From Gammaproteobacteria bacterium (lineage in GTDB: Bacteria; Pseudomonadota; Gammaproteobacteria; S012-40), in NCBI GenBank assembly GCA_029881255.1, contig JAOUMY010000005.1, forward strand, positions 259,531 to 323,530: a stretch of 64,000 nt of DNA, in the 5' to 3' direction. Under the pieces are notes generated by a model. The model was not told the DNA's origin. It saw only the letters and a list, made by a program, of their open reading frames with translations, and ran no database searches. Below are positions 6,672 to 55,574 of this stretch, piece by piece. A program made the position numbers and the translations under genes. The first letter of the stretch is position 1; each line of letters starts with the position of its first letter.

Positions 6672-6845
6672 GCGTCACAAATAACAACGGCACCCCTCCA
6701 CCGATGAATGAGACTATTCATATGCTTTCAGGAAAACACAGACAGACCGTGAAACGGTCGTGACGAGCTCTCCTCCCTATTCAAATTTCTGAAGTCGTTT
6801 TAACTTGCAAAAACTCGCGACTTTCAGCGTTGTAAGGCTATCGGT

Positions 6846-7820: not shown

Positions 7821-7844
7821 CTCTACTTACCTGTTCCGCACTGT

Positions 7845-8744: not shown

Positions 8745-8903
8745 TTCCCCCCCTAAATCTAGAATCCACGTATCAACAAGGCTGATCGATTTCTATCGCT
8801 CTACTATAAAGCCTTATCCCAGCATACTGGACAAAGGCCTTACTCTAGACGACTAACCTTGTTTTCGCAAGACTGAATGTAAGGAAATATAAGAGCAAAT
8901 CAG

Positions 8904-16688: not shown

Positions 16689-17072
16689 CTAGGCAGATAT
16701 CGGTGGACGAATGTCTGCTGGAAGTGAAACAGTAGTGAGCTTATAAATATCTCTGAACTGGACACCAGTTTTTTTCCAATTGGCGCCGCAGAAAACCTGA
16801 ACCTCGCTAACCGCAGCTGCAATCAATTGGGTTGAACAGGTATTATCCGGTCCGTAATCATTGTTGTCGCTCACCTGAATATCAGAAAAATCGACATCAC
16901 TCAGGTCAATTGCGCTGGAATGGGAAGAATGAGAATCGTGTTCGATAGAGGAGTTTATATCAACTCGATCATGGAAAAGACAGTCAACAGATGCGGCCAC
17001 CACAGACAACGGCATCCACGCTGCGATCAAAACGCAGTAAAAGACTATAGTTTTTTTTGTAAATCTTCCCAT
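16689..17072 (-). CDS. Small secreted His/Ser/Asp-rich protein; overlaps the czcA stop by 28 nt.
   Basis: Signal peptide. Mature part [35 protein letters not shown] with two Cys. Function unknown; possibly a periplasmic metal binder. Confidence 0.4.
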
Positions 17073-20000
17073 GTTTGAGATCTTTTCTTTTTTCTAAAAG
17101 AAGGCTTTTTAAACGTTGGTCGCCATGACCAAACTCGCCTCCAACTCCCCGGCCGTTTGATAGACCCGTTAATTGCTCCGTTATTTATAGCAAATTGTTT
17201 TCCTTTCCACAAGGCATATAAAGCGGGAATTAAAACCATGGAAACTAGCGGCGCGGTGATCATTCCACCCAGCATCGGAGCGGCAATCCGTCTCATTACT
17301 TCGGAACCAGTGCCGCCGCCAATCATTATCGGTGCCAACCCGGCCAATATCACCGCAGCAGTCATCGCTTTGGGACGGACACGCATTACCGCGCCATAAA
17401 CTATCGCGCGACGTAGTTCATTCAAATCCTTGGGATCAAAATCTTTTACTGCCTGGTTTAAGTAAACCAGCATAACAACACCAAATTCCGCTGACACTCC
17501 TGCCAGAGCGATCAATCCGACTCCGACCGCTACTGATAGATTGTAGTCAAGCAGATAAACCATCCACAATGCCCCCACTAGAGCAAGTGGCACAGCGCCC
17601 ATGACCATAAAGGATTCTGCAAAATTTCTGAAATTGAAATACAGCAACAACAAAATGATTACCAGGGTTAGAGGCACAACATAAATCAGCTTTTCCTTTG
17701 CACGCAGCATGTATTCGTATTGTCCGGACCAACCAAGGGCATAACCTGCAGGTAGTTCGACTTTTTCGAGAACAATTCTTTGAGCATCAGCGACGAAACT
17801 TCCCAGGTCGCGACCTCGGATATCAACATATACCCAGCCTGTTCGCCTCGCATCTTCACTTTTTATCATTCCTGGCCCGTCGGCGATGGAGACAAAGGCA
17901 ACATTGCCCAGGGTGATCTGACCGCCCCCTGGTGTAACAATCGGTAAAGCCATCAGGTCATCAATAGAATCACGTACGTGTTGTGGATAGCGGATATTGA
18001 CCGGATAACGTTCCAGTCCTTCAACTGTTTGAGTAACATTTGCCCCACCCACAGCCATGCTGATAATTTCATGTACATCAGCGATGTTTAAGCCGTAGCG
18101 TGCGGCTGCACGTCTGTCAATATCCAAGTTAATATATCGACCACCTGCCACGCGTTCCGAAAAAACACCGGCGGCTCCCGGTACACTCTTCACCGCAGAC
18201 TCAACTTGCTCGCCGATCTTTTGTATCACGCCCAGATCAGGACCAAGAATCTTGATACCCAACGGAGTTTTTATACCCGTAGATATCATGTCTATACGTG
18301 TTTTGATCGGCATAACCCAGGCGTTTGTCAATCCGGGAAACTTCACCGTTTCATCGAGAATATTTTTCAGCTTATCGGTGGTCATCCCCTTACGCCATTC
18401 ACTGCGGGGCTTTAATTTGATCGTGGTTTCGATCATTGTAAGTGGAGCAGGATCGGTGGCTGTTTCGGCCCTGCCCACTTTACCGAATACAACATCGACT
18501 TCTGGAATGGTCTTTATCAAACGATCCGTAATTTGTAACAACTCGCCAGCTTTGCCGATTGATACACCGGTGAATGTGGTCGGCATATAGAGCAAATCAC
18601 CCTCATCCAATTCCGGCATAAACTCAGAACCCAATTCTCCATAGGGATATATCGTGGTTAAAACAACTGCAAAAGAAAGGACTACGACCGTCTTTGGCCA
18701 ATTGAGCACGAACTTAATGACCGGCAGATACATCGATATAAGGAATCGATTGATCGGATTTTTATGCTCTGAGGGAATATGTCCCCTTATAAAATATCCC
18801 ATCAATACAGGCATAAGTGTTATCGACAAACCCGCCGCTGCAGCCATGGCATATGTCTTGGTATAGGCTAGCGGGGAAAATAGTTTTCCTTCTTGCGCCT
18901 CAAGTGTAAAAACAGGAAGAAAACTCAAAGTAATTATCAACAACGAAAAGAATAGTGCCGGACCCACTTCAACCGCAGCACGCTGCATAGCAACCCAGCG
19001 ATTCTCATCTGTGATATTGCCCTTTTCAATATGTTTATGCGCATTTTCAACCATCACAATGGCTGCATCGACCATGGCACCTATGGCAATGGCAATTCCG
19101 CCCAGGGACATGATGTTAGAATTGATATTCTGATAATGCATTACGATATATGAGATCAATATACCGAGAGGCAAAATAACTATTGCCACCAATGCAGAAC
19201 GCAAATGAAATAGAAAGATTCCGCAAACAATTGCGACGACGATAAATTCTTCAATGAGCTTATCGCGTAGTGTTGTTATCGAACGCATGATGAGATCGGA
19301 ACGATCATATGTTTCGATGATTTCCACGCCTTCCGGCAAGCCCTTGGCGACCTGAGCCAATCGTGTTTTAACTGCCTCTATCGTGGTCAACGCGTTTTCA
19401 CCAAAACGCATCACGATAATGCCGCCAACGACCTCACCTTCACCATCGAGCTCGGCGATACCACGGCGCATCTGTGGGCCGATACGAATATTGGCAACAT
19501 CCTGCAGCAACACAGGCGTACCTTCTTCACTCACACCAAGCGGAATATGGCGAAGATCGTCCAGACCCTTGATATAACCTTTGGCACGAACCATATATTC
19601 AGCTTCGGCCATTTCGATAACAGAACCACCCACTTCCTGGTTGGCCCGTTGTATCGCTGTCTTCACATGATTGATATGCATGTTGTAAGCACGCAGACGA
19701 TCAGGATCCACCACCACCTGGTACTGTTTGACCATTCCGCCAACAGTTGCGACTTCTGAAACACCTGGTACGGTCTGTAGTTCGAAGCGTATAAACCAAT
19801 CTTGCAAGCTACGTAGTTGAGCGAGGTCATGATTGCCGCTGCGGTCAACGAGCGCGTACTCATAGATCCAGCCTACACCGGTCGCATCCGGTCCTAGCTG
19901 AGGTGTTGCCGACGGAGGCAAGGCCCCGGCGACTTGCGACAAATACTCGAGCACGCGGGAACGCGCCCAATATATATCTGTGCCATCTTTAAAAATGACA

Positions 20001-20281
20001 TAGACGTATGAATCACCGAAAAAGGAATAACCACGCACTGCTGTAGTCCCGGGTACCGAGAGCATGGCTGTGGTAATGGGGTAGGTTACCTGGTCCTCAA
20101 CAACTTCCGGCGACTGACCTGGAAATGAGGTTTTAATAATAACTTGTAGGTCAGATAGATCAGGAATCGCATCCAAAGGTGTATTCTTTACCGAGTAAAC
20201 CCCCCAAACTGCGAGGATTATGGTAAAGATGAGTACTAGAGGCCTATTTCGAATCGACCAGCGAATTATTTGTGCAATCAT
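17045..20281 (-). CDS. czcA: CzcA/CusA-family heavy-metal efflux RND inner-membrane pump.
   Basis: 1078 aa with the 12-TM RND architecture. N-terminus [17 protein letters not shown]... matches the CusA/CzcA family. Lys-rich C-terminal tail. Confidence 0.9.
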
Positions 20282-20391
20282 ATCTACTACCGAACAATAT
20301 CCGCCGCGTCACTATACTTAATGAATGACATCGGCATGTCATTTATTTTTATTGAATTCTTGCCGATCAATTTCCCGGAAATTGTCAGATA

Positions 20392-21849
20392 TTATCCGCC
20401 GGCCATACGCATAAGGGCAGCACGCATGCTGCTTTCAGAATCGATCAAAAACTGGCTCGATACAACCACTTCCTGATCCTCTTCCAACCCGCCAACAACC
20501 TCGATGCGATCATCCGTTTCGATACCTGCATGAATAATCACGGGCTTGAATTTTCCTTCTCCAAGGTGGGTAATCACCCTGGTTTGATTGCCCTGGCGAA
20601 TCACTGCCTCACGTGGGACAGTCAAAACTTGCCGCTTTGGACGTGCGAAAATGCTGATATCGGCATACATATTAGGTTTGAGGACTTCATCGGGATTGTC
20701 AAAACGCAGACGCGCCTTCACACTTCTGGTGCGGGCATCGAGGCTTGGATAAATATATTCAACCTCGCCTTCCCATACCTTTTCAGGCATAAACGACAAC
20801 CTGGCTTCTGCACCTTGTCCTTCCTTGACCCAATCAATCTGATTTTCGAATACGTCGACCATCAGCCAGACTGTGGACAGATCGGCAATACTGATCACGG
20901 ACTTAGACGGTGGCACAAATTCCCCTTCCGATACATTCAAACGCGTGACGAATCCGTCCTGGGGCGCATAGAAACTGACCAGTTGCTCCACTTCACGAGT
21001 ATCGTTCAAACGGGCAATCTGTTGCTCCGAAACACCGAGGGCACGAAGACGCTCCCGAGAGGCATCAATCAATCCATTGGCGCTATCTCCCAGTTCAAGC
21101 GCCTGCAGAAATTCTTCCTGGCTATTGACGAGCTTGGGCGAGTATAGCTGGAACAAGAGATCACCCTTGGCAACCTTCTCACCTGTTGTTTTGACCGCGA
21201 GCTTCTCGACCCAGCCCTCGGTGCGCAAACTCACTGTTCTGAGATTGTTGTCATTATAATTGATATAACCGACGCTCTCGATCTTGCGATATATCGTACG
21301 CCGCTTCACCTTATCCAGTCTTACACCCAATGCATTGATCACGGTCGGCGCTAAGGTCACGACGCCTGAATCGCCGGTGTTCTCCAATGGCACCAGGTCC
21401 ATTCCACATATCGGACAGTCTGCCTCCGGATCTTCCATCACAATTTCCGGGTGCATAGGACAAACAAATTTAGGATTGGAGTGCTTTTGCGCGTGCTCTA
21501 CCGCAGTTTCTTTTGGCGCTTCGTTCACAGGGGAAATGCTCTGGTTTCCAAAAGAGTCATGGTTATGGCCATCACCGCTCAATTCACTCAGCATGGCAGG
21601 CGCTGCAACGACAGGGGCCGCCTGAATATGACTAGATGAATTCTCATCGGCAGCCACCGCCTGTCTATCACCCAGCCCGGAGAACACATATATATTGATG
21701 GGTACCCCAACCGCGAGTAACACGATTGCACCAAGTATCTGTTTACGTGCAACAGATGACATGTGTCGCGCATTCGGCAGGAAAATCTGTTCCAGCCACT
21801 TAAATACCAACCAAACACCGTAGCGTGTTGTTCTAGTAACACGTTCCAT
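20392..21849 (-). CDS. czcB: RND periplasmic adaptor (CzcB/CusB-like membrane fusion protein) with an N-terminal heavy-metal-binding Cys motif.
   Basis: FVCPMHPEIVMEDPEADCPICGMDLVPL metal-binding module, followed by MFP beta-barrel/lipoyl-like segments. Confidence 0.8.
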   Translation of the reverse strand: MERVTRTTRYGVWLVFKWLEQIFLPNARHMSSVARKQILGAIVLLAVGVPINIYVFSGLGDRQAVAADENSSSHIQAAPVVAAPAMLSELSGDGHNHDSFGNQSISPVNEAPKETAVEHAQKHSNPKFVCPMHPEIVMEDPEADCPICGMDLVPLENTGDSGVVTLAPTVINALGVRLDKVKRRTIYRKIESVGYINYNDNNLRTVSLRTEGWVEKLAVKTTGEKVAKGDLLFQLYSPKLVNSQEEFLQALELGDSANGLIDASRERLRALGVSEQQIARLNDTREVEQLVSFYAPQDGFVTRLNVSEGEFVPPSKSVISIADLSTVWLMVDVFENQIDWVKEGQGAEARLSFMPEKVWEGEVEYIYPSLDARTRSVKARLRFDNPDEVLKPNMYADISIFARPKRQVLTVPREAVIRQGNQTRVITHLGEGKFKPVIIHAGIETDDRIEVVGGLEEDQEVVVSSQFLIDSESSMRAALMRMAGG

Positions 21850-24990: not shown

Positions 24991-26412
24991 ATGGCAGAGA
25001 AGAAGTACAACGCGGGTGTAAAAGAATACCGCGAAACATATTGGATGCCTGACTACACGCCGAAGGACACTGACTTTCTTGCGTGTTTCAAAGTTACCCC
25101 ACAGCCTGGTGTACCTCGTGAAGAGGTTGCTGCTGCGGTTGCTGCGGAATCATCAACTGGTACCTGGACCACTGTTTGGACTGACCTGTTGACTGACCTG
25201 GATTACTACAAGGGTCGTGCATACGCCATCGAAGACGTACCTGGCGACGACACTTGTTTCTATGCATTCGTTGCATACCCAATTGACCTGTTCGAAGAAG
25301 GTTCAGTTGTAAACGTTTTCACTTCATTGGTTGGTAACGTTTTCGGCTTTAAAGCACTACGTGCACTTCGCTTGGAAGACATCCGTATTCCTATCGCTTA
25401 CGTAACTACTTGTGGTGGTCCTCCTCACGGTATCCAAGTTGAGCGCGACATCATGAACAAATACGGTCGTCCTCTGTTGGGTTGTACTATCAAGCCTAAG
25501 TTGGGTCTGTCTGCTAAGAACTATGGTCGTGCGACTTATGAGTGTCTTCGTGGCGGTCTTGACTTCACTAAGGACGACGAAAACGTTAACTCTCAGCCGT
25601 TTATGCGCTGGAAGCAGCGTTTTGACTTCGTAATGGAAGCAATCCACAAAGCTGAGCGTGAAACTGGTGAGCGTAAGGGTCACTACCTGAACGTTACTGC
25701 TCCTACTCCTGAAGAAATGTACAAGCGTGCAGAGTATGCTAAGGAAATCGGCGCACCTATCATCATGCACGACTACCTGACTGGTGGCTTCACTGCTAAC
25801 ACAGGTCTTGCTAACTGGTGTCGTGACAACGGCGTTCTGCTTCACATCCACCGCGCGATGCACGCAGTACTTGACCGTAACCCGCACCACGGTATCCACT
25901 TCCGTGTACTAACTAAGGCACTTCGTTTGTCTGGTGGTGACCACCTGCACTCAGGTACGGTTGTTGGTAAGCTGGAAGGCGACCGTGACGCAACTCTGGG
26001 CTGGATTGACATCATGCGTGATTCTTACATCAAAGAAGATCGCTCACGCGGCATCATGTTCGACCAAGATTGGGGCGCAATGCCTGGTGTAATCCCAGTT
26101 GCTTCTGGTGGTATCCATGTATGGCACATGCCTGCTCTGGTTAGCATCTTCGGTGATGACTCTGTACTCCAGTTCGGTGGTGGTACGCTGGGTCACCCAT
26201 GGGGTAATGCCGCTGGTGCAGCTGCAAACCGTGTTGCTTTGGAAGCGTGTGTTGAAGCACGTAACGAAGGTCGCGCTATCGAGAAAGAAGGTAAGGACAT
26301 CCTTACTAATGCTGCCAAGAGCAGTCCTGAGCTCAAGATGGCGATGGAAACTTGGAAAGAAATCAAGTTCGAATTCGACACAGTTGACAAGCTGGACGTT
26401 GCTCACAAGTAA
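24991..26412 (+). CDS. cbbL: RuBisCO large subunit, form IA.
   Basis: 473 aa. Form-I signatures [19 protein letters not shown] and the KPKLGLS active-site loop. Strongly biased, highly-expressed-type codon usage. Confidence 0.95.
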
Positions 26413-32745: not shown

Positions 32746-33723
32746 ATGAATCTGACACAGTTACGCCATATCGATGCCATAGTAAAAAATGCTTACAACC
32801 TTTCCCGTGCAGCCGAAACGCTGCACACTACACAGCCCGGTGTGAGTACTCAGTTACGCGCTTTGGAAGACGAATTAGGAGTAATGATCTTTGAGCGCAA
32901 AGGCAAACGCATAATAGGCTTAACCGCTGCCGGCGAATCGATCGTCAGCATGAGCCAGGAAATCCTGCAAAAAATTCGTGCAATACGTGCTGTTGGGGAG
33001 GAGTTTAGCCAAGAGAAAAAAGGGACGTTTACCATAGCCACCACTCACACCCAGGCCAGATATGCGCTCCCAGCTATTATCACGCGCTTTGTAAAACGTT
33101 ATCCTGACGTTCAACTGCGTATTCGACAAGGACATCCACAGCAAATTTCCGAAATGGTGATTCAGGGCGATGCTGATATTGCAATTGCAACCGAGGCCAT
33201 CGCATCTTACCAACAGCTGCTTATGTTACCCGTGTATCGCTGGAACCGGTGCCTGATTGCACGCTCCGGACATCCAGTTTTGAAACCACGCAAACCGACG
33301 CTGGACCTGATCGCGCAATTTCCTATCGTGACCTATGACTTTGCCTTTGCCGGCCGTTCCGCGATGAATAAGTCGTTTATTGAGGCAGGACTCAAACCCA
33401 ACATAGTGTTAACTGCAATCGACTCCGACGTTATCAAACACTATGTGGAACTTGGGCTAGGGATAGGTGTACTTGCACATATGGCATACGATGAGAAACG
33501 AGACAAGAAATTGCGCTGCAAAGATGTCAGTCATCTCTTTGATGACAGTGTTACCAGTATCGGTATACGACGCGGCAGTTTTCTACGCGGTTACATGCTC
33601 GAGTTTGTCGAAATGTTTGCACCGCACCTCAGCATTGGACAGATTTCATCGTTACTGACTAAGCATAGTCCGGAACTGGAAAATGAGTTAATGCAAAAGC
33701 TGACAGACTTGCCTTTGCGCTAG
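32746..33723 (+). CDS. LysR-family regulator, CysB-like.
   Basis: HTH LSRAAETLHTTQPGVSTQLRALE; TTHTQARYALP motif typical of CysB-family members. Divergent from the sulfite-reductase-like gene. Confidence 0.75.
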   Translation: MNLTQLRHIDAIVKNAYNLSRAAETLHTTQPGVSTQLRALEDELGVMIFERKGKRIIGLTAAGESIVSMSQEILQKIRAIRAVGEEFSQEKKGTFTIATTHTQARYALPAIITRFVKRYPDVQLRIRQGHPQQISEMVIQGDADIAIATEAIASYQQLLMLPVYRWNRCLIARSGHPVLKPRKPTLDLIAQFPIVTYDFAFAGRSAMNKSFIEAGLKPNIVLTAIDSDVIKHYVELGLGIGVLAHMAYDEKRDKKLRCKDVSHLFDDSVTSIGIRRGSFLRGYMLEFVEMFAPHLSIGQISSLLTKHSPELENELMQKLTDLPLR

Positions 33724-35510
33724 CGAGTCAATAAGTGACAATCATTACAGCCAATAACCTGCCCACTACCGTACTGAATGACGCTACCGGCTTTTGTAAT
33801 AAAGCTACGAGCGGCCAGTGCACGTGATAGATGTGTACCTTCCAGCGACAAGCCATGACAGGATTGGCAACTTTTCGGATCGGCATTGTAAAATCGACCA
33901 TGTTCGGAACCCATCCACTGGGGATCATCAATATTGTGTAGTCCATGGGGGCCATTTAGAGAAACGGGAACGCCTTTTTCATGACATACCTCGCACTGAC
34001 TGATGGTACCGACGTGCCCTTGCAGCTGGATCGGGATCAAATTATCCACCATGCCGGGAATTGAGCTACTCCAAATAGCGTGCGGACTACCATGACAACC
34101 CTGACAGGCCACGCCACCGTGACCAACACTTTGACGATACAACTTATCCGGCTCTTCTGCATAGCGTCGATTAACGGCTAGACGCTGGGTGGCAAACACG
34201 TCGGATTCATCAAAGGTTCTGTTCAACACTATCGAGTCGCCCAAATGCTGAAGCGCATCGCCCGTATGGCAAGACTCGCAACGTGGTTCATCGAGAAACG
34301 GTCTTCGTTGTTCGGATGAACCGACCATAGGGGATTTACCTACCGCGAGCATGCCACCGTGACAGCTTTGGCAGTTGATTCCGCTCTTGCTCATAGCATC
34401 TCTAACATAGGGTGCTTCACGACCGTGACAATACATACAACTGGTATTCCCATCCTCTGGAATATTTTGTGTTTCGTTTGAAACGGCCAACTGATATTGG
34501 TTGTTTAAGGCATGTGCAGCATGTATTGAAATCGACAATGGTAATCGTCGTTGTTGATGAAAGGTTGACGGCCCCAAACCATCCGGATCTGCAACTGGCG
34601 AGTAGTGGCACTCAGCACACATCAGCGGTGTTCTCTTTAATAAATCGAGGCCTGTCGTTGCCCCATGCAATAGCAAAACGTTTTCCTTTCCTTGGTTGTC
34701 GATATCTGAATTTTGACTCCACTCAATATCGATACCCAGACGTTGACTGACGGCATCGTTTGCTGCAATCTCACCCGTCGCATGACAGTGGGCACAATCC
34801 ATTGGTTTAGCCATGGGTAACACAATGTTTGTAGATGCAAGCAAGCGTGGATGTTCTCCGCGAACGATCGCACTAATTTGGAATTGCGGAAAATAGTTTA
34901 GATTACCGTTATCATCTATTGGTGTAATCGGTACCCATGCAGCGGTAAACTCTTTGGTCTTCGCATCAAACAAACCAAATGTTTGTGGAATGTTATTAAG
35001 CCCGGGCATGTTCTGTCCATCAAACAGTAATCCTCGCACCCCGCCATCTAGCGGAATCCGAACTTGATTGCCAAGTAAAAACCGGTATAGCTCGCCGGCA
35101 TGTTCCCAAAAATTCGTCTTGCTGGCGCTGCTGGTATTGATAGAACCATAGCGGTCCATAGTGCCCTGATACTCAAGTTTAACTTCGGTATTATCGAGTA
35201 ATACAGGCAATTGCTTTTTATCGGTAGACGTTTTTATCACCTGAGCCTTGATGAAATTGGCAGGAGGAAATATTGCAAACACCGAAAAATCTTGATCAGG
35301 AAAGGCCATTCCCCTGCGGTTAACCGCAAGTACTTTATAGTGCTCAGTGCCGCCTAGATTGCTGCTTCCATTTGAGTCATTCTTGTGCCGCGATGAAAAG
35401 TCTCTTTCCGCACATCCTCCCAAAGCAATAAGTGAGAACAGCAGAACAAGAAGAAAATTTAGAATTCGTAAAATCGAAGCACTATTCGACATGAAATATT
35501 TGCCAACCAA
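33720..35510 (-). CDS. Nonaheme c-type cytochrome lipoprotein with a ~250-aa heme-free N-terminal domain.
   Basis: Lipobox LIALGGC. Nine CxxCH motifs: CAHCH, CAECH, CMYCH, CQSCH, CESCH, CQGCH, CEVCH, CQSCH, CNDCH, all in the C-terminal ~350 aa. Confidence 0.75.
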   Translation of the reverse strand: MVGKYFMSNSASILRILNFLLVLLFSLIALGGCAERDFSSRHKNDSNGSSNLGGTEHYKVLAVNRRGMAFPDQDFSVFAIFPPANFIKAQVIKTSTDKKQLPVLLDNTEVKLEYQGTMDRYGSINTSSASKTNFWEHAGELYRFLLGNQVRIPLDGGVRGLLFDGQNMPGLNNIPQTFGLFDAKTKEFTAAWVPITPIDDNGNLNYFPQFQISAIVRGEHPRLLASTNIVLPMAKPMDCAHCHATGEIAANDAVSQRLGIDIEWSQNSDIDNQGKENVLLLHGATTGLDLLKRTPLMCAECHYSPVADPDGLGPSTFHQQRRLPLSISIHAAHALNNQYQLAVSNETQNIPEDGNTSCMYCHGREAPYVRDAMSKSGINCQSCHGGMLAVGKSPMVGSSEQRRPFLDEPRCESCHTGDALQHLGDSIVLNRTFDESDVFATQRLAVNRRYAEEPDKLYRQSVGHGGVACQGCHGSPHAIWSSSIPGMVDNLIPIQLQGHVGTISQCEVCHEKGVPVSLNGPHGLHNIDDPQWMGSEHGRFYNADPKSCQSCHGLSLEGTHLSRALAARSFITKAGSVIQYGSGQVIGCNDCHLLTR

Positions 35511-44416: not shown

Positions 44417-45904
44417 ATGGTGCGAATCTCGCTACTCGTATGGATTATTTTGACTATGGTGGCAGCATGTGCAGAAAACCTTCCACCAAGCCCAGCAACT
44501 TCATTGACATCCTCAAAAAATAGTCCCAGTTCAAGAAGCCACGGTATGTGGGATCCTGTCGTACAGCTATCCTCGGCCCAAGTTGACAACTCTAATCTTG
44601 CCCGAATTCGAGAATTCGCTGTAAGCCTGTCTCCGCAAGATGCTACGAGTATTTTTTCCTGGCAAAACGCGGTTTCGATGGATGCATTCTCGGGAAATGT
44701 CCTTTGGGGAAACTATCAGGTTCGCATCTTGGATGATATTGGTGCAGTCACCAGTGCTTCGCCGATTCCGGAAATACAACAAACGAATGCCCAATATCTA
44801 GACATACAATTCTCTCGCGACGCCAACAATGCGAAGGCGTTATGGTCAAACAATGGCGAAATATACAGCAGTGACATCTACGTGAATACTAGCCCTATAT
44901 GGCTGTTGCCTCAATTACAGGGAAACAGCACCGGCAAACCTCAATTGCTATTTTCGGCACAAACACTTCCTTTCTCACCACCCGTGGACACACAAGCATA
45001 CGCTATGGTTTGGCCTGCGCCAACGCTCAACAATTCTATTCAAGGCCGAGTTACCAGCCTGGCACGCGGTATGGGCGGTGCACCAATTGCCCAAATTGGC
45101 GACGTTCAGAATTTGTCGTTTGGTAGTGGTGTAGCGCTTGGCTCAGCTACAATTGACGACCAGACGAGGACATCACAACTTTGGCAACAATACAACATCG
45201 CCGGTCAACAAGAGTTAATCGTGAGTCAACTTGAACCGGGGAAAACTTGGTTCACACTATCCCCAACCCTCACCAGCATCAATTTTGATATTGCGAGAGA
45301 AATTGTTACTGCGAGCCTGCCTGGGAATGTTCTCATGCTTATCGGTTATGACCGCGGTGGCAACATTCTTTCGCAGAGCTTCCATCCAATTGTCGGCTGG
45401 GGAAACCCCCAAGTCATCAGCGAATCCACTCCTATACCATCTAGCCGTTCAAATCTACGCGCGAACTACAACGGACTCGGAGATATACAAGTTGTGTGGC
45501 TGAGTGAAGATACCAGTCCTGTATTTGTCACACGTGTATATGGAAATCGTTTTTCGCGAATCCAACAAGGTTTTGCCTGGAATGGTGTGACGGAATTTAG
45601 CAGCGATATTCCTGCTGCCGTGCACAGTAGCGTGATGGTAAAGGTGGCAGACAATAGCGATACGGTAGTTTTGTGGCAAACCCAAGCTGGTGTTGATCAA
45701 ACACTCCACTTCCGCGAATTTCGCCCTAGCACAGGATGGAGTGGCAGTATTTCTGTCGCCAGCTTTTCGAATATTAACGGTCAACAATTATTAGCCTCAA
45801 CGATTGATATAAATAAGATAGGCATTATTAGCCTCGCATGGGCAGAAGTGGGCATTAACGGACCACTGGCAAATCTAAATATTAATGCCTTACGCAGACG
45901 CTGA
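44417..45904 (+). CDS. Secreted lipoprotein, hypothetical (495 aa).
   Basis: Lipobox TMVAACA. No recognisable domains. Confidence 0.45.
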   Translation: MVRISLLVWIILTMVAACAENLPPSPATSLTSSKNSPSSRSHGMWDPVVQLSSAQVDNSNLARIREFAVSLSPQDATSIFSWQNAVSMDAFSGNVLWGNYQVRILDDIGAVTSASPIPEIQQTNAQYLDIQFSRDANNAKALWSNNGEIYSSDIYVNTSPIWLLPQLQGNSTGKPQLLFSAQTLPFSPPVDTQAYAMVWPAPTLNNSIQGRVTSLARGMGGAPIAQIGDVQNLSFGSGVALGSATIDDQTRTSQLWQQYNIAGQQELIVSQLEPGKTWFTLSPTLTSINFDIAREIVTASLPGNVLMLIGYDRGGNILSQSFHPIVGWGNPQVISESTPIPSSRSNLRANYNGLGDIQVVWLSEDTSPVFVTRVYGNRFSRIQQGFAWNGVTEFSSDIPAAVHSSVMVKVADNSDTVVLWQTQAGVDQTLHFREFRPSTGWSGSISVASFSNINGQQLLASTIDINKIGIISLAWAEVGINGPLANLNINALRRR

Positions 45905-46019
45905 TCCAACCCACCCTATAAATTTCTATAGTAGTACTTCATTAAAGAGCAAATTACTCTACCCGTTAGGAAAATATGGAAAGCTTCTCGCCAAAATGGC
46001 GTCTGGAAAAAGGAATTTT

Positions 46020-46388
46020 ATGTCGGGTGTAAATATACTGGTCGTAGACGACTCATTTATTGTGCGCAAAATTTTACGATATTATCTGGAAAACGCAGGT
46101 CACTTAGTTGAAGAAGCACAGGACGGTGGAAGCGCCTGGATGCTTGCCCAACATCAACAATACGGCTTAATTATTACCGAGATTAACATTTCAAGTATGG
46201 ATGGGGTTGAGCTTATTGAAAAGCTCCGCCAGGAGTCCTGCAACCGTTACACCCCTATATTGGCAATTAGTTCGGAACGCCGCTCTCATAAAAAAGACCG
46301 GGCAAGTAAGGCGGGGGCGTCTGATTGGATTTGCAAACCATTTATTGAAGAAACAGTGCTCAATGCTGTTGAAAAATTGATCGCCTGA
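46020..46388 (+). CDS. Stand-alone CheY-like receiver-domain protein. Start is the ATG at 46020 with an AAGGA RBS; an in-frame alternative lies at 45996.
   Basis: Receiver motifs ILVVDDS...LIITEINISSMDG...AISS...K. Confidence 0.75.
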   Translation: MSGVNILVVDDSFIVRKILRYYLENAGHLVEEAQDGGSAWMLAQHQQYGLIITEINISSMDGVELIEKLRQESCNRYTPILAISSERRSHKKDRASKAGASDWICKPFIEETVLNAVEKLIA

Positions 46389-46441: not shown

Positions 46442-46645
46442 TTAATCTACACGAACTTCGGTCGCCTGTGGTCCTTTTGCTCCATTTTCTACTTTGAAGG
46501 TTACTGTTTGACCTTCGTTCAGTGTGCGAAAACCGCTACCCTGAATGGCTGAAAAATGAACAAAAACGTCAGCGCTGCCATCGGAAGGTGTAATAAATCC
46601 GAAACCTTTGCTTTCGTTAAACCACTTGACTGTGCCAGTATTCAT
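46442..46645 (-). CDS. Cold-shock protein (CspA family).
   Basis: [15 protein letters not shown]...[11 protein letters not shown] motifs; 67 aa. Confidence 0.9.
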
Positions 46646-46810: not shown

Positions 46811-46854
46811 AAGAAAAAAGTGGCAGCGGAACACCGCTGCCACTCCTTTTTCTA
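46811..46854. terminator. Bidirectional hairpin terminator downstream of the 46878-47333 (-) gene.
   Basis: AGTGGCAGCGG-aaca-CCGCTGCCACT flanked by A6 on one side and T5 on the other. Confidence 0.55.
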
Positions 46855-46877: not shown

Positions 46878-47333
46878 TTAAGGTCTTACGTAAGAATAAC
46901 CGGCCATTTGAAGCTCCATGATGCGACCAACGCCAGCCTTAACAACCTGAACGCCTTCAGTCAGCACTGGATCTTTGCCAGTTTTTGCCTTAACTTTCTT
47001 CATTGTGTTGCCACAAGCGCTGAAAGTAATATTCTGAGTGGCCAGGCTCTTAACGCGGTCTGACTGCTTGTTACCTTTAGTCAGTAGACCCAGGCCAGGA
47101 CCGTAGGCAACGACTTCTACTGCGATATTGTCAAGACCGTATTCCTGTTGCAGGTTAACAGCATTGTTCAACGCAATAGTTTGGGTCTGAGCATCATCTG
47201 AGCTGACCTGGATAACGATTTTATATTTTGGATCAAAGTCAGCAGCTACGCTGTTTGCGGATACAGATACAGCCAGGATTGCGCTTGCAGCAGCAATAGC
47301 GAAAACCTTAGACACTAGTTTGCTAAATTTCAT
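46878..47333 (-). CDS. Secreted DsrE/DsrF/YchN-like protein (family tentative).
   Basis: Signal peptide. Core KIVIQVSSDD...IAVEVVAYGPGLGLL...ITFSACGNT...AGYSYVRP. Homologous to the C-terminal domain of the anti-sigma factor at 48043-48768. Confidence 0.5.
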   Translation of the reverse strand: MKFSKLVSKVFAIAAASAILAVSVSANSVAADFDPKYKIVIQVSSDDAQTQTIALNNAVNLQQEYGLDNIAVEVVAYGPGLGLLTKGNKQSDRVKSLATQNITFSACGNTMKKVKAKTGKDPVLTEGVQVVKAGVGRIMELQMAGYSYVRP

Positions 47334-47500
47334 TTTATTTCTCCCAAAATGTGATGACAGTTAAACAAAAACACCTACAGGACTATAGACGTTGGCCGAT
47401 AGACATTTATTCCACATTTGAAAAATATTTTTCCCTAAGGGAATAAAACCGTAGACCAAGCCGTCTTAAATAATACGTGGTAACGTTAGAAGGTTGCACT

Positions 47501-48046
47501 ATGTGGGAAATATTTACCCAGTCTCGCAAATCCCGCCAGAAGCTTGAAAGCCGCTGGCATCGCCTCTACCGCCTGGCCTATTCCTGGTGTCATGACCCAG
47601 ATCTTGCGGGAGATCTTACACAAGACACCCTTGCGAAAGCCTTAAAGAACATGCATCAGCTGAAAGATACCGATGCATTGGATGCCTGGCTGTTCAGTAT
47701 TCTAAATAATTGCTGGAAGGACTATTGGCGAAATCGCCGGGAAATGTCTGACTTGGACCAAATCGAACACGAACCTTTTGATGATATCCACACACATCAA
47801 CAACGAAATGATCTCATTTCCGGGGTTCGCCAAGCCATCGCACGTTTACCTTTGCACCAGCGTCAAGTATTGAGCTTGGTCGATATAGAGGAAATGAGCT
47901 ACAAAGAGGTTGCTCAAATTCTCGATATTCCTATCGGCACGGTAATGAGTCGCCTGTGTCGAGCGAGAAAAGAATTAAAGGATATCTTGATTACAATGGA
48001 GAGAGAGACCGTTTCCAATAAACCAGAATTGAGGATTATAAAATGA
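47501..48046 (+). CDS. ECF (sigma-70 family, RpoE-like) sigma factor. ATG at 47501 with an AGAAGG RBS.
   Basis: Region 2 (LAYSWCHDPDLAGDLTQDTLAKA) and region 4 (LSLVDIEEMSYKEVAQILDIPIGTVMSRLCRARKEL). Confidence 0.8.
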   Translation: MWEIFTQSRKSRQKLESRWHRLYRLAYSWCHDPDLAGDLTQDTLAKALKNMHQLKDTDALDAWLFSILNNCWKDYWRNRREMSDLDQIEHEPFDDIHTHQQRNDLISGVRQAIARLPLHQRQVLSLVDIEEMSYKEVAQILDIPIGTVMSRLCRARKELKDILITMERETVSNKPELRIIK

Positions 48047-48768
48047 GCCGCAAAGAAACAGTTTCAGATGAGAAATTAAACGCTTTGCTGGACAACGAAT
48101 TGGATAACGATGACAGAGCACATGTTTTGTCCATTATGCAACAGGATCAAGAGGTGGCTTCTCGCTATTGTGCCTTGCGTCGAACCAAAGACTCGATAGC
48201 ACTGGCATACTCCAACCCACCCCTACCATCGCAACTGGCGCATTCCAGAGTAAAAACAACAGAGAGACTGCCTTTTAGAAATTTCGCCGCCTCCTTTGCT
48301 CTCATTATTTGCGGCGCGATCGCAGGATGGATTGGTGGGCAATTTAATACTCAAGTTGCTGACCCTGGATTTCTCAGCATTGATCAAATTCAAAACCACA
48401 ATCTACAAAGCAACCGGGTTCTAATCCATATCAGTGATATGAACCCCAGACAAATACTTTCCGCGCTGGATACCGCAAAAGGTATGCTGGCTTCCCAGGA
48501 CAAGAGCAGCAATTTGCAGTTAGAAATTGTTGCCAACTCCGACGGAATCGACTTTATGCGCGAAGGATCACCTTTTGCGCAGGAAATTAGACAAATGACG
48601 TCGGACTTTTCCAACGTGACCTTCCGTGCATGTAGCTCGGCAAGAAGCAATGCCGAACTGCGGGAAGGCCGGAGAATTGCGATGCTGCCGGACGTACATA
48701 TGGTACCGATGGCATTTGATTTTATCCTCACTCGACTGAGTGAGGGCTGGACCTATGTTCGTGGCTAA
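48043..48768 (+). CDS. Anti-sigma factor: N-terminal anti-sigma domain, one TM helix, and a periplasmic DsrE/YchN-like domain.
   Basis: Overlaps the sigma-factor stop (ATGA). LNALLDNELD anti-sigma motif. TM FAASFALIICGAIAGWIGG. The C-terminal domain aligns with the 46878-47333 protein: RVLIHISDMN versus KIVIQVSSDD, LEIVANSDGIDF versus VEVVAYGPGLGL, VTFRACSSA versus ITFSACGNT, and both end ...YVRG/YVRP. Confidence 0.6.
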   Translation: MSRKETVSDEKLNALLDNELDNDDRAHVLSIMQQDQEVASRYCALRRTKDSIALAYSNPPLPSQLAHSRVKTTERLPFRNFAASFALIICGAIAGWIGGQFNTQVADPGFLSIDQIQNHNLQSNRVLIHISDMNPRQILSALDTAKGMLASQDKSSNLQLEIVANSDGIDFMREGSPFAQEIRQMTSDFSNVTFRACSSARSNAELREGRRIAMLPDVHMVPMAFDFILTRLSEGWTYVRG

Positions 48769-48820: not shown

Positions 48821-50410
48821 ATGGATGCCACTATAAAAACACCGCGCTTTATACTGGCGCTGCTAGAACCAGAAGCCTATTCTCATCCTGTTTGGGAATG
48901 CAAGCTGATACAGACTCACATCTCCTGGATTATCCTGACGGGTAGATATGCCTACAAGATAAAAAAGCCCGTCAATCTTGGTTTTCTCGATTTTTCCAGT
49001 CTCGAAAAACGTCGTTATTTCTGTGAAGAGGAATTACGTCTTAATCGACGACTTGCCCCTTCCTATTACCTATCTGTTGTCCCCATTACCGGCCGAGAAG
49101 ACCATCCAATCATGAATGGTGACGGGCCAACGCTAGAATATGCTGTACGCATGCGCCAGTTTCAGCACCGGAATCAGTTTGACGAGATGCTGTCGCGAGG
49201 AGAATTGCAGGAGTCTCACATTGATGCGCTGGCCACTATGATCGCAAGTTTTCACAAGAACATCCCATCCTGTTCCGTCGAAGAGCCTTATGGTGATACA
49301 AATCATATAACCCATATCGTTACAGAAACCATAAAGAGCTTTAGGCAGGCTCTCAGCGAACCAGAAATGCTACGACAGCTAGATCAAATAGACACCTGGT
49401 GCAAACATCAATTTCAAACGCTTGGCCCAAGCTTTGAAAAACGTAAGATTGCTGGATTCGTACGGGAATGCCATGGTGATATGCATTTACGCAATATCGC
49501 GTGGGACGATGGAACACCACTGGTGTTTGACTGTATTGAATTCAGTCCAGGCTTGCGTTGGAATGACGTTATTAGTGAAATCGCTTTTCTGATCATGGAC
49601 CTCGATGATAGACAGCAATCACAACTGTCGTCGCGATTCATGAATACCTATTTGGAATACACAGGAGACTATGCGGGCCTATCACTGTTACGCTTTTATC
49701 TCACCTATCGTGCACTGGTCAGAGGCATGGTAGCGGCGATTCGACTGATACAGACCGACAGCACACAACAGGAACACATAAAGGTCGATAGGGAAGCCCA
49801 TGAATATTTGGATCTCGCTACAGCGTATACAAAAACGCGAACTCCCATGCTCATACTTACACGTGGCCCATCAGGAACGGGAAAGACAACCTACTCGCAA
49901 AATTTACTACAACATCTAGGCGCCATCAGAATTCGCTCTGACGTGGAACGAAAACGCCTACACGGACAGGATGCACACAAAATTACGAGAACAACACCTG
50001 GCGAGGGAATATACGGCGCATCCTCGACTGACAAAACTTACGCACATTTATTGAAACTCACGCAGGAAATATTAGACGCCGGATACCATGTCATTGTCGA
50101 TGCAACATTTCAATCTCCCGTACATATACGTGCGTTTCAAAAAACAGCGATCGAGAACAATATCGGCTTCATTATTGTTGAGTTCTATGCTTCAACCCAT
50201 ACGTTGAGACAACGAGTTTCCAAACGAACAGGCGACGCCTCGGATGCTGATATCGCTGTTTTAGATCACCAGTTACAATCGTGGCAGACTCTTAGCGAAC
50301 AAGACTATCCGCTATTTTTTCGTGTTAACACAGAGAGTAGAGAAGAAGCAACACTCGCGTTAAACACGGTTATTCAAACTGTCAAATCTATACAAACAAA
50401 CGACACATAA
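48821..50410 (+). CDS. Bifunctional aminoglycoside-phosphotransferase-like kinase domain fused to a P-loop (AAA-type) ATP-binding domain.
   Basis: Kinase-like catalytic loop ECHGDMHLRNIAWDDG and DxD. C-terminal Walker A LTRGPSGTGKTT. Confidence 0.7.
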   Translation: MDATIKTPRFILALLEPEAYSHPVWECKLIQTHISWIILTGRYAYKIKKPVNLGFLDFSSLEKRRYFCEEELRLNRRLAPSYYLSVVPITGREDHPIMNGDGPTLEYAVRMRQFQHRNQFDEMLSRGELQESHIDALATMIASFHKNIPSCSVEEPYGDTNHITHIVTETIKSFRQALSEPEMLRQLDQIDTWCKHQFQTLGPSFEKRKIAGFVRECHGDMHLRNIAWDDGTPLVFDCIEFSPGLRWNDVISEIAFLIMDLDDRQQSQLSSRFMNTYLEYTGDYAGLSLLRFYLTYRALVRGMVAAIRLIQTDSTQQEHIKVDREAHEYLDLATAYTKTRTPMLILTRGPSGTGKTTYSQNLLQHLGAIRIRSDVERKRLHGQDAHKITRTTPGEGIYGASSTDKTYAHLLKLTQEILDAGYHVIVDATFQSPVHIRAFQKTAIENNIGFIIVEFYASTHTLRQRVSKRTGDASDADIAVLDHQLQSWQTLSEQDYPLFFRVNTESREEATLALNTVIQTVKSIQTNDT

Positions 50411-52983: not shown

Positions 52984-53753
52984 AACTCACTCCCTTTGAA
53001 TTTCCCAAAAATACTACGATAAGCTGCATGATTATGCAATCAAGCCAATACTGACTAACGCGTATAACGTTTGCACGCTACAATCTGAATAAATATGACT
53101 ATTTTTGCATTTATCGCGTATTGGCTACTCGTACTGGTCGTGGGCTATCTCGCCTACTGCCTGACACACAGGGTAAGGTCTCAGACTATGTCGCGACTCT
53201 ATGCGTCGGTGCCAGCTATTCCATGCTGTGTCTGACTTCCCGTATTGCATTGACCATGGGTACGGTCATTATCATGTCAAATATTGTGATTGACGGATTC
53301 CTCGCAGTTTCGTAGACCGATCTTATTCAGGGTTTGCTTATGGCAGCAATACTGGTGAAAGTGTCGCTTATGTTGTTCTTTGAAGTGGTGGCCTATTTGA
53401 TGTCTAGGAAATTGTACCCGGTTTTATTTTTTCTCTAGCCAGCATCCTAGTCGTAAGCAGGTACAGCGCCCCTCTACCGCCACATATCATCAAAGATTTC
53501 GACGATGCTACAAAATAGGCATATTTGCTCTTCAGCCAACATTAAACTCCCCAGGGAATAATCAGTCTGCGTTCAGAAAACTATATTAATTTACGACCTA
53601 ACTATCAGATTTTAGGGGAATTGATCGAGGGCACAGCACCAGACAAATACTCTAAAATAATATAACCTATCGTTTCAGTTAGATTTTTTTACAAATAAAA
53701 TTGCTAACAATAAGAAAGAGCAGGACGCTCCAATGCTGGAGGGGAGTACGGAA

Positions 53754-55574
53754 ATGAAGTTGTACAGTGTAAAGGCAGTCTTATGTCTGTTTGTTTTTCT
53801 ATTTATCAGTTCTTGTGAAGCACCCCCAACATACAAACGCCCCGGCATTAAGGGATCAAACCTCCATATTCGCGAGGCCACTCTCGTCCCATTTGATCCA
53901 GCACTCTATGAGCTTGCAGACCTGCATTGGGGTGGTCGCCTATATGATCATTGGTGGACAAATCAAGATGGCACAATGTTGCCGGTACCTGCTGAAACCG
54001 CAACTACTCACGAGCTATGGCCGGTGGAAAATACCAACGAGGCCGGAGTAGTTACCTGGGAATGTAGCTCCTGTCATGGCTGGGACTACCAGGGAGTTGA
54101 CGGTATCAATGGCAAACCTGCCAGCCCATTTCATACCGGTATCAAAGGCATCATACCTATAAGCGGTGGTAGCCAACCCGTGCTACAGACACCGGAAGAA
54201 GTATATAACTTTCTACACGACGGCATGGTCGATACGCTGTCTCATTCATTTGGTCACGTGATTCTCGATGACATGGCGATATATGCCCTGACCAAATTTG
54301 TTATCACTATGCACGAAGACGCATTAGCGCAGCGCGCTCCAAGTAACTACATTAATCAGGAAACCGGACTTACGGCTGGTGTGGAAGCGGACGGAGCGAC
54401 AATGTTCGGCCTCGATATCACCGAAGGTGGTTGTCAGGCCTGTCATGGCGCAGATGGAAAGATGATCGATTTCATTGATGGTGACCCAGCGACTCAACCT
54501 AACGAATTTGTTGATACTCTGGCGCGCGAAAACCCTTGGGAAACACTGCATATCATCCGCTTTGGTCAACCCGGAAGCGAACCTGTATTCATGAAAGGCC
54601 TGGGCGAATATCCCGCACATGCAACAAAGGATGTGCTGCACGAGGCGGTCAATATTGTCGCCTACGCACAGAACGGCCTGATCGCCAGTGCGACTGGTTT
54701 CGACTTCAGAACCTTCCAGGCTGGCGCAGATCACGCTACCGCGAATCAACCCGCACTCGATTTCGCACGCGGCGGTATCCTCTACGACGAATGGTGGACG
54801 GCACATGACGAAACCGCACCGCTTGTTGTTCCACCGGAGATTGTCGGTGTCGATCATGCATTGTGGACACCTGCTGCGACTAACCTAACACCAGCAGCTG
54901 GAGAAATTACCTGGCGCTGTAAAGCCTGTCATGGCTGGGACTATGTGGGCGCAGACGGAATCAATGGTGTCAGTGGCAGCAGTTACGAAACCGGCATTAA
55001 GGGCATCGTAACGTCTCACAACACTATGCCAACCCATATGGAACCTGTAGCAATCTACGATTTCATCCATTCAGGAACGGTGCATGCTGAAGGAGATCAC
55101 GCCTTCGCAGCACACGTATCACCTGAGGACTTGTATGCGCTAACACGTTTAGTCGTCGATTTGCAGCAAGAAGCAATGCACGGCATGGCGCCTGATGACT
55201 TTATCGATCTCGCCACCGGAACCGTAACAGGTGGCAACGTCGAACATGGTCAGACGGTATTTCATGCAGCCGCAGATGCCGGAGGCTGTGGCGATGCCGC
55301 ATGTCACGGCCCAGATGGTACGGCGATTGATTTAGCACCTGCGGGCGAACCACCTATCTTTCTGCATAATTTTGTTCTTGCAGATCCGCAGGAAGCTTTG
55401 CATAAAATCCGATTCGGAAATCCAGGAAGTGCAATGCCCGGGCATGCCGATCATCATGATCTCCTGAATTTAATGGACTCAATTAGCGTTCTTGAGTTTA
55501 TCGAAGGCGGCATACTGCCACCCCCAACGGCTGCGCCGGCAGCAGGCTTTATAAGCAATTACTATCGGCGCTAG
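53754..55574 (+). CDS. Tetraheme class-I-type c cytochrome lipoprotein, built as a tandem duplication of a diheme module. The fourth heme site is CX4CH.
   Basis: Lipobox FISSCEAP. Heme motifs CSSCH, CQACH, CKACH and CGDAACH. Repeated blocks W.C..CHGWDY.G.DGING...GIKGI and GGC..CHG.DG..ID...IRFG.PGS. Confidence 0.75.
   Translation: MKLYSVKAVLCLFVFLFISSCEAPPTYKRPGIKGSNLHIREATLVPFDPALYELADLHWGGRLYDHWWTNQDGTMLPVPAETATTHELWPVENTNEAGVVTWECSSCHGWDYQGVDGINGKPASPFHTGIKGIIPISGGSQPVLQTPEEVYNFLHDGMVDTLSHSFGHVILDDMAIYALTKFVITMHEDALAQRAPSNYINQETGLTAGVEADGATMFGLDITEGGCQACHGADGKMIDFIDGDPATQPNEFVDTLARENPWETLHIIRFGQPGSEPVFMKGLGEYPAHATKDVLHEAVNIVAYAQNGLIASATGFDFRTFQAGADHATANQPALDFARGGILYDEWWTAHDETAPLVVPPEIVGVDHALWTPAATNLTPAAGEITWRCKACHGWDYVGADGINGVSGSSYETGIKGIVTSHNTMPTHMEPVAIYDFIHSGTVHAEGDHAFAAHVSPEDLYALTRLVVDLQQEAMHGMAPDDFIDLATGTVTGGNVEHGQTVFHAAADAGGCGDAACHGPDGTAIDLAPAGEPPIFLHNFVLADPQEALHKIRFGNPGSAMPGHADHHDLLNLMDSISVLEFIEGGILPPPTAAPAAGFISNYYRR

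Follow-up and report, generated by a model that had tools for sequence, protein, structure and literature searches.

Little is known about periplasmic substrate sensing by chemolithotrophic sulfur oxidizers, and the regulators of sox genes are largely undefined beyond those of a few Alphaproteobacteria (SoxR, and ECF26 sigma factors with sorT) and the two-component systems of Acidithiobacillus. A 64,000 nt stretch of gammaproteobacterial DNA (GenBank assembly GCA_029881255.1, contig JAOUMY010000005.1, positions 259,531 to 323,530 of the forward strand; hereafter, the window) raises the question of whether a DsrE-like domain could act as the signal receiver of an anti-sigma factor. At positions 46878-48768 of the window, genes for a sigma factor of the extracytoplasmic function (ECF) type and its putative anti-sigma factor stand divergent from a gene for a secreted DsrE-like protein, and the periplasmic part of the anti-sigma factor has the same predicted fold as the secreted protein. 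The reading that we favour, and that we hold to be probable on the whole, is that a periplasmic sulfur species acts via a single cysteine of the anti-sigma factor, Cys197, and that the sigma factor then induces itself together with periplasmic sulfur-handling proteins. Such a module may represent an undescribed route of periplasmic sulfur sensing.

Two DsrE-like domains around one sigma factor

An open reading frame (ORF) check of the window located the three genes, which are given here with their predicted domains, the transmembrane (TM) helix, the anti-sigma domain (ASD) and the residues of interest.

46878-47333, minus strand: secreted MTH1491-type DsrE-like protein, 151 aa (PF02635, 1L1S, AlphaFold2)
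47241-47333, minus strand: signal peptide of the secreted protein, approximately residues 1-31
46881-47240, minus strand: mature fold of the secreted protein
47013-47015, minus strand: codon of Cys107 of the secreted protein, in an FSAC motif
47501-48046, plus strand: ECF sigma factor with sigma2 and sigma4 domains, ECF26-like, 181 aa from the ATG at 47501
48043-48768, plus strand: whole anti-sigma factor, 241 aa
48043-48213, plus strand: class I ASD, three helices, residues 1-57
48271-48342, plus strand: single TM helix, approximately residues 77-100, FRNFAASFALIICGAIAGWIGG, with basic residues before it (AlphaFold2; G91, G95 and W96 conserved in the homologue alignment)
48400-48768, plus strand: predicted periplasmic MTH1491-type DsrE-like sensor domain, residues 120-241 (BLASTP, hhalign, 1L1S, AlphaFold2)
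48631-48633, plus strand: codon of the invariant Cys197 of the anti-sigma factor

The C-terminal domain of the anti-sigma factor and the secreted protein are paralogous, as a first-pass annotation made from the letters of the window had noticed. Pairwise BLASTP aligns the two with E=7e-10 over 84 aa. With hhalign, positions 118-239 of profile A1 (20 homologues of the 241-aa protein; its counterpart A2 holds 40 homologues of the secreted protein) align with the whole mature secreted protein at a probability of 98.9% and E=1.4e-17 over 118 columns, which in protein numbering pairs anti-sigma residues 120-240 with secreted residues 33-150. This profile alignment had been named beforehand as a result on which the claim could fall; it was significant, and every block listed in that annotation was reproduced. 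The hidden Markov model (HMM) of the free family matches 141 non-redundant anti-sigma homologues, and the reverse search works too.

The fold, which the same annotation had tentatively called DsrE/YchN, can be placed more exactly: judged from profiles and predicted models, both window proteins are members of the MTH1491-type branch of the DsrE-like fold. The secreted protein passes the gathering score of Pfam DsrE (PF02635) with 28.6 against 22.7 bits, the free-family profile matches PDB entry 1L1S (MTH1491) with E=5e-19, and the AlphaFold2 model of the secreted protein (mean predicted local distance difference test score, pLDDT, 93.0) has 1L1S as its best Foldseek match (E=2e-11). The anti-sigma domain alone falls below the PF02635 threshold, with 9 of the 20 family members at E<1; the anti-sigma family profile matches 1L1S with E=1e-13, and Foldseek again ranks 1L1S first when given the anti-sigma model. 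ST0148 (2PD2) comes next for both family profiles. Because family profiles and AlphaFold models all match 1L1S best, we regard the DsrE-like assignment as correct. Both predicted models show the three-layer alpha/beta arrangement of DsrE/YchN proteins, with an identical order of secondary-structure elements.

MTH1491 and ST0148 (COG1416-type; 1L1S and 2PD2) share with the window proteins an F-x-A-C motif and a C-terminal G-W/Y-x-Y-(V/I)-R motif. These archaeal proteins are free and cytoplasmic, whereas of the two window copies one is predicted to be secreted and one forms part of a membrane anti-sigma factor. The better known relatives DsrEFH, TusBCD and DsrE3A are cytoplasmic carriers that serve in metabolism, not signalling, and their identity to the window proteins is only 10-13%.

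Each of the two domains holds exactly one cysteine, in the FxAC motif where it had first been noticed: C197 in the periplasmic domain of the anti-sigma factor and C107 in the mature secreted protein. Conservation was counted over 153 non-redundant anti-sigma homologues from genome and metagenome contigs, and loss of the cysteine among them would have spoken against a sensor built on it; Cys197 is present in 150 of 150. Gly235, Trp236 and Tyr238 are each found in 145/145 homologues, His129 in 146/151, Asn165 in 146/150 and Arg231 in 143/145, and R173 and P216 are also conserved. In the AlphaFold2 model, Cys197 is the last residue of strand 192-197, directly before helix 198-208, and the cysteines of both proteins occupy this position between a strand end and a helix N-terminus.

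The N-terminus of the secreted protein is basic and then hydrophobic, ends in SVA-AD and has no lipobox cysteine. Among free paralogues that neighbour related modules, 70 of 70 have such an N-terminal hydrophobic segment and 99% have a counterpart of Cys107; more than 2184 homologues of the secreted protein were found in total. The positions common to anti-sigma domains and free paralogues are few, namely the cysteine, the F-x-A that precedes it and the C-terminal G-aromatic-x-Y. Mean identity between the two clades is approximately 22%, the clades never interleave, and the nearest neighbour of every anti-sigma domain is another anti-sigma domain, in a family whose own mean identity is only approximately 39%. 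Since the clades are so distant and reciprocally separate, the fusion is ancient and the adjacent gene no recent copy, and local duplication of the neighbouring gene was rejected.

The evidence is consistent with the 241-aa protein being a single-pass class I anti-sigma factor. Its ATG overlaps the stop codon of the sigma gene (ATGA), and each of the 125 non-redundant loci with enough upstream sequence has an ECF sigma gene immediately upstream, in agreement with the pairing first proposed for the window. The AlphaFold2 model (mean pLDDT 86.9) shows three N-terminal helices, a long hydrophobic helix at 77-104 and then the alpha/beta domain; the N-terminal part of the predicted model has the ASD fold and is structurally similar to RsiW. 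Family profile matches are weak for MucA (E=0.028) and RseA_N (E=0.046), and sub-threshold for zf-HC2 in 16/20 family members (best 9e-4). A zinc-binding anti-sigma factor (ZAS) was rejected because the HxxxCxxC motif is absent from the alignment of 20 homologues, which has only a partly conserved single Cys43.

An ECF26-like chassis and its predicted regulon

The sigma factor matches Pfam Sigma70_r2 (9.5e-13) and Sigma70_r4_2 (1.1e-17), with no region 3 or region 1, and scores 90.8 bits against the TIGR02937 cut-off of 42.9. Its best match in S. meliloti is RpoE4, at 40% identity (E=2e-29), and a tblastn search of plasmid records returned the S. meliloti replicon that carries rpoE4, an anti-sigma gene, sorT and genes for a cytochrome c and pseudoazurin; catalase-linked ECF26s1-type loci are also among the top plasmid matches. 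Profile A1 aligns with the annotated anti-sigma factor adjacent to RpoE4 over residues 4-54 (E=9e-8), the best single argument for calling the 241-aa protein an anti-sigma factor, and beyond residue 54 no similarity was found; the RpoE4 anti-sigma factor was tested for a DsrE-like periplasmic domain and does not contain one. The S. meliloti locus has GGAATAAG-N14-CGTC before rpoE4 and GGAAT-N16-CGTC before sorT. The GGAAT/CGTC core of the mapped RpoE4 promoters is also the core of the window motif, and a -35 GGAAT/-10 CGTC consensus has been mapped by rapid amplification of cDNA ends (5′-RACE) and reporters for RpoE4 and SigE (PMC6527743, PMC3511301).

By its identity to RpoE4 and the shared promoter core, the window sigma factor is best classed as ECF26-like; an RpoE/sigmaE-type system was rejected on the promoter and the best matches. 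The RpoE4-like sigma factor and the shared ASD, combined with an unrelated periplasmic half, argue for an ECF26-like chassis with a DsrE-like sensor, in other words a sigma/anti-sigma pair that appears to have gained its sensor by domain replacement.

The comparison with characterized ECF26 pairs (S. meliloti RpoE4-SMc04050 and RpoE1, and Starkeya novella SigE) shows what was kept and what was exchanged. Promoter core and spacing, GGAAT(A)-N16/17-CGTC, are alike (PMC6527743), as are the homologous N-terminal ASD, the RpoE4-like sigma factor and the co-transcribed anti-sigma gene, and the targets are periplasmic sulfur-oxidation proteins (PMC3511301), as predicted for window-type modules. RpoE4 and Starkeya novella SigE are sulfite-responsive, and SnRpoE1 responds to tetrathionate (PMC3511301, PMC6527743). 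In contrast, the ECF26 anti-sigma factors have a periplasmic half unrelated to the DsrE-like domain with its invariant cysteine; their hosts are Alphaproteobacteria, whereas window-type modules belong to gamma- and betaproteobacterial lithotrophs; and their target is sulfite dehydrogenase, whereas the predicted targets of window-type modules are the secreted DsrE paralogue or Sox, porin and permease genes.

Two predicted promoters and a likely terminator frame the transcripts of the module.

47388-47413, minus strand: predicted ECF-type promoter toward the DsrE-like gene, GGAATAAATGTCTATCGGCCAACGTC, with -35 GGAATAAA and -10 CGTC
47440-47465, plus strand: predicted ECF-type, autoregulatory promoter in front of the sigma/anti-sigma operon, GGAATAAAACCGTAGACCAAGCCGTC
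46819-46844: GC-rich hairpin with an 11-bp stem and T-runs on both strands, likely terminator of the DsrE-like transcript

The pattern GGAATAAA-N12-14-CGTC has exactly two matches in the 64 kb, where 0.03 are expected. Both have the N14 spacing and lie back to back within the 167-bp intergenic region between the secreted DsrE gene and the sigma gene. One faces the sigma operon, as an AAC/AAT-type -35 and a CGT-type -10 element found in silico upstream of the operon of an ECF sigma factor, and the other faces the secreted DsrE gene, which is therefore a predicted target of the sigma factor. Further GGAAT-N-CGTC sites in the window, at 39617, 50844, 52274, 45612 and 27089, were set aside as chance matches, since they lack the GGAATAAA extension or lie within or antisense to genes; approximately two strict GGAAT-N-CGTC sites are expected by chance.

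The promoter also bears on the start of the sigma gene. The mechanical ORF runs from a GTG at 47477 to 48046 on the plus strand, just 11 nt from the -10 element, and GAAGG precedes the ATG at 47501; for these two reasons the ATG is more likely to be the start than the GTG. A start at the ATG gives 181 aa, within the 178-186 aa of sigma homologues. The strong hairpin 3′ of the DsrE gene suggests that this gene is probably monocistronic here.

The motif recurs far beyond the window. Dyad enumeration in the 250 nt upstream of sigma genes found GGAAT(A)-N16/17-CGTC in 95 of 126 loci, where no dyad exceeds 7 in shuffled sequence; the extended consensus is TGGAATAA(A/T)-N13-(G)CGTCTT, mostly 11-58 nt ahead of the start codon. 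In approximately 1.02 Mb of fetched loci, 160 copies of GGAATA-N14-16-CGTC were counted where approximately 6 are expected, with 101 sites before sigma genes, 28 before DsrE-like genes, 26 before other genes and 5 without a downstream ORF. A position-weight scan at a 12-bit threshold gave 201 sites against 9 in shuffled controls. A re-run with two extra spacings gave 204, and these place the motif before 113 of 126 sigma genes and, in 37 of 50 loci, on the other strand between the divergent DsrE gene and the sigma gene.

The predicted targets differ between clades. As well as preceding DsrE-like genes, the motif is found before soxY (loci L125 and L148) and SoxB-like genes (L036 and L015), and before genes for a HAD hydrolase or a TPR protein in other clades. 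In L010, L011, L013 and L092-L097, the reverse motif precedes a divergent gene for a 466-aa TPR protein, not a DsrE-like one (for example, L010 2889-4289, minus strand).

A motif-like GGAATACCGGCTGGCCGCCTGCGTC was also seen inside cutA, 219-225 nt upstream of dsbD (L002 10069-10093, L004 8609-8633 and ten or more further Thiogranum/Thiohalobacter loci). EYRLAACV, a conserved peptide of CutA, is encoded at this site, which may resemble the motif through its coding alone or else act as a dsbD promoter within cutA.

Distribution and gene neighbourhoods

An exhaustive HMM search gave at least 469 representatives (50% identity clusters) of the anti-sigma family at E<=1e-30; the best 150 of these are 228-261 aa long, save one of 195 aa that lacks the N-terminal approximately 45 residues. 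The impression of a tiny family, from a word-indexed protein search that gave 20 homologues, was rejected on this search and on contig scans that gave 163 loci. A plasmid search found no full-length homologue. In public records these proteins are annotated as ‘hypothetical’ and, in a single case, as ‘DsrE/DsrF family’.

Nearly all of the hosts that bear a name are sulfur lithotrophs of the Gamma- and Betaproteobacteria: Thiobacillus, Sulfuriferula (strain GW1, with a complete genome, among them), Sulfurisoma sediminicola, Sedimenticola hydrogenitrophicus and Sideroxydans, and further Thiogranum, Thiohalobacter, Thiohalomonadales and Acidiferrobacterales. A divergent gene for a secreted DsrE-like protein lies within 1.5 kb in 47 of 105 loci, in both classes. 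In other genomes the module is often beside or inside sox clusters, with sox genes next to it in L061, L071, L125 and L148. Betaproteobacterial loci have the DsrE gene followed by a porin-like gene (weak Porin_O_P match) in 27 cases. One gamma clade (L061, L071, L125, L148, L067 and L131) has a Sulf_transp permease, a periplasmic thioredoxin-like protein, a porin and DsrE on one side and sigma, anti-sigma and SBP_bac_11 on the other; next to this layout come a second DsrE, a SoxB-like gene, a SoxA/TsdA-type cytochrome or SoxY-SoxZ.

Single loci depart from these layouts. In L085 (Sedimenticola hydrogenitrophicus), a free DsrE gene at 5945-6382 (plus strand) shares the strand of the anti-sigma gene and lies downstream of it, not divergent, and a DUF255 thioredoxin-like gene lies upstream. 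In L035, L046 (Sulfuriferula, 5844-9441) and L055 (Sideroxydans), the anti-sigma gene is followed by genes for the dehydrogenases of 6-phosphogluconate and glucose-6-phosphate. A gene for a single-PDZ DegS-like protease, which could be a site-1 protease, is found near the modules of these three loci, and in only approximately five loci altogether. Free MTH1491-type genes also occur on plasmids: beside a site-2 protease family gene in Azospirillum brasilense (L164, 2206-3863) and between a gene for DoxX and one for a TlpA disulfide reductase, under control by a LysR regulator, in Rhizobium tumorigenes (L165, 2700-4377). These are possible other redox or sulfur contexts for the clade.

A candidate periplasmic sulfur sensor

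The evidence can be drawn together in a model in which the sigma factor would be held at the inner membrane by its co-translated single-pass class I anti-sigma factor. A reactive periplasmic sulfur compound would bind Cys197 or modify it covalently, for example as a persulfide or S-thiosulfonate; the signal could be thiosulfate, tetrathionate, sulfite, or sulfane sulfur such as polysulfide. The modified anti-sigma factor would then release the sigma factor, most likely by regulated proteolysis, by which single-pass anti-sigma factors are usually inactivated. Free sigma factor would transcribe its own operon and, from the back-to-back promoter, the divergent secreted paralogue, and in other genomes also genes for porin, thioredoxin-like, YeeE/SoxT-like permease, SoxYZ and SoxB-like proteins. 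The sulfur chemistry in this model is extrapolated from DsrE, TusD and DsrE3A, whose single cysteine carries persulfide or thiosulfonate sulfur, because no MTH1491-type member has a demonstrated biochemical function.

We regard the part of this model that concerns architecture and regulon as very likely, and give the part that concerns a sulfur signal a slightly better than even chance. The first-pass annotation had suggested a sulfur-responsive module of three parts, sigma factor, anti-sigma factor and a partner that might compete or relay persulfide. Its sulfur link has strong circumstantial support from the sulfur-oxidizer hosts, the sox neighbours and predicted targets, and the kinship to RpoE4; its third part is inconstant, since the adjacent paralogue is found in fewer than half of the loci, and emerges from the data as a predicted transcriptional target.

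Several observations weigh against the model. The window was searched for soxXA, soxYZ and soxB and none was found, so the window module is not part of a sox cluster. In the Thiogranum/Thiohalobacter clade, glnE and groESL flank the pair, and neither a free DsrE gene nor a sox gene is adjacent. The 241-aa window protein has no match in Pfam or NCBIfam, and the literature searched held no functional study of the MTH1491-type DsrE-like clade. The anti-sigma domain does not keep the CxNT motif that the free family shares with MTH1491, so that its pocket may differ or be non-catalytic. Finally, all statements on promoters, regulon and topology are computational.

A variant of the model, which we put forward tentatively and think has about one chance in four, is a sulfur relay to transcription, whereby sigma activity is set not by simple ligand binding but by sulfane or thiosulfonate sulfur that Cys197 exchanges with the secreted DsrE-like protein (or SoxYZ). 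If this were true, it would be the first sulfur-relay fold to serve as an extracytoplasmic signal receiver, the first physiological role for the MTH1491/COG1416 clade, and, for gamma- and betaproteobacterial lithotrophs, a master regulator of their sox and thiosulfate-uptake genes.

Alternatively, the DsrE-like domain of the anti-sigma factor may mainly be a docking surface that forms mixed oligomers with the secreted paralogue, which would shield the anti-sigma factor from proteolysis or expose it, as RseB does for RseA, so that the sulfur-loading of the free protein is what is sensed. Mixed oligomers are proposed because MTH1491-type proteins are trimers, MTH1491 itself being a stable homotrimer (PMC5495134), and both window proteins are predicted to share fold and periplasmic location. 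As a predicted target of the sigma factor, the paralogue would under this explanation provide feedback, and its adjacency recurs across the Gamma- and Betaproteobacteria. On the other hand, more than half of the loci have no adjacent paralogue, the divergent target is sometimes a TPR protein, HAD hydrolase or SoxB-like protein instead, the two clades are dissimilar, and the free neighbours come from several subfamilies. We consider titration by a partner unlikely as the chief mechanism, and it is compatible with direct sensing by Cys197.

The likeness to RseA-RseB-sigmaE and MucA-MucB-AlgU is one of layout: the anti-sigma factor is single-pass, with a cytoplasmic N-terminal ASD and a periplasmic domain, and the locus also encodes a secreted periplasmic protein. 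RseA and MucA show weak N-terminal similarity to the window anti-sigma factor (E=0.03-0.05). The periplasmic domains and partners of those systems have other folds and their promoter motif differs; RseB is co-transcribed with the sigma operon, whereas the secreted window protein is divergent, with its own predicted sigma-dependent promoter.

A third explanation, which we rate as rather improbable, is a general periplasmic thiol-redox or metal-stress sensor whose lone cysteine reports oxidative, disulfide or copper stress and whose regulon would repair or protect periplasmic thiols. Genes for thioredoxin-like proteins, DsbD, CutA and DUF255 thioredoxin-like proteins do neighbour the module in several clades, a motif-like site lies upstream of dsbD, free DsrE-like genes stand beside DoxX and TlpA in Rhizobium, and the window has a Cus-type efflux system. 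Thiol-reductant proteins are, however, normal parts of Sox systems (SoxV, SoxW and SoxS), and the site in cutA, coding as it does for EYRLAACV, may be fortuitous. The taxonomic range is almost wholly that of sulfur lithotrophs, genes for SoxY, SoxZ, SoxB-like proteins or SoxA are direct neighbours or motif-preceded in several loci, and the nearest characterized sigma factor is sulfite-responsive (PMC6527743). A degenerate domain that merely plugs the periplasmic side without a ligand, with control elsewhere, such as a generic envelope-stress protease cascade, could be argued from the lost CxNT motif and the DegS-like protease gene near the Sulfuriferula loci; it is very improbable, given the conservation of Cys197, H129, N165, R173, P216, R231, G235, W236 and Y238, which would be unexpected in a passive plug.

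Sensing of a sulfur species via Cys197 thus remains our preferred reading, and it would set the module apart from known regulators. The sox regulators SoxR (ArsR type) and TspS/TspR (an Acidithiobacillus two-component system) control periplasmic thiosulfate oxidation and respond to reduced sulfur; both belong to other regulator classes, and neither uses an ECF sigma factor or a DsrE-like sensor. ECF pairs with varied extracytoplasmic sensor domains are already known, as is ECF26 control of sulfite oxidation. What may be new is the DsrE-like sensor fold, paired with a sigma-dependent secreted paralogue and linked to sox genes. As first suspected from the window, we found no description in the searchable literature of a DsrE-like sensor on an anti-sigma factor, of its sigma-dependent secreted paralogue or of the association with sox and thiosulfate uptake, and the main text of the ECF classification 2.0 does not mention DsrE. 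If the reading is correct, it would give a function to MTH1491-type DsrE-like proteins, for which structures have existed since 2002 and no role is known. The family is a widespread candidate sensor with a testable residue, Cys197; the defined promoter motif makes regulon prediction possible in any genome; and cultured hosts exist in Sulfuriferula, Sulfurisoma, Sedimenticola and Sideroxydans.

The surroundings of the module in the window tell something of the host. A RuBisCO large subunit gene (24991-26412) suggests that the host is probably an autotroph, and genes for a multihaem cytochrome resembling MtrC and a cytochrome c of several domains (33720-35510 and 53733-55574) fit a lithoautotroph, which the host of this metagenome-assembled genome probably is. 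The CusA/CusB-like RND efflux pair lies at 17045-21849. Directly 3′ of the anti-sigma gene, 48821-50410 (plus strand) encodes a 529-aa protein in which an aminoglycoside-phosphotransferase-like kinase domain is fused to an AAA_33 P-loop kinase domain, a gene that is not kept at that position in related loci. On the other side, a CspA-like cold-shock gene (46442-46645, minus strand) lies just past the DsrE terminator, and 44417-46388 (plus strand) holds a 495-aa ORF without a Pfam match that overlaps the start of a gene for a 167-aa receiver-only response regulator.

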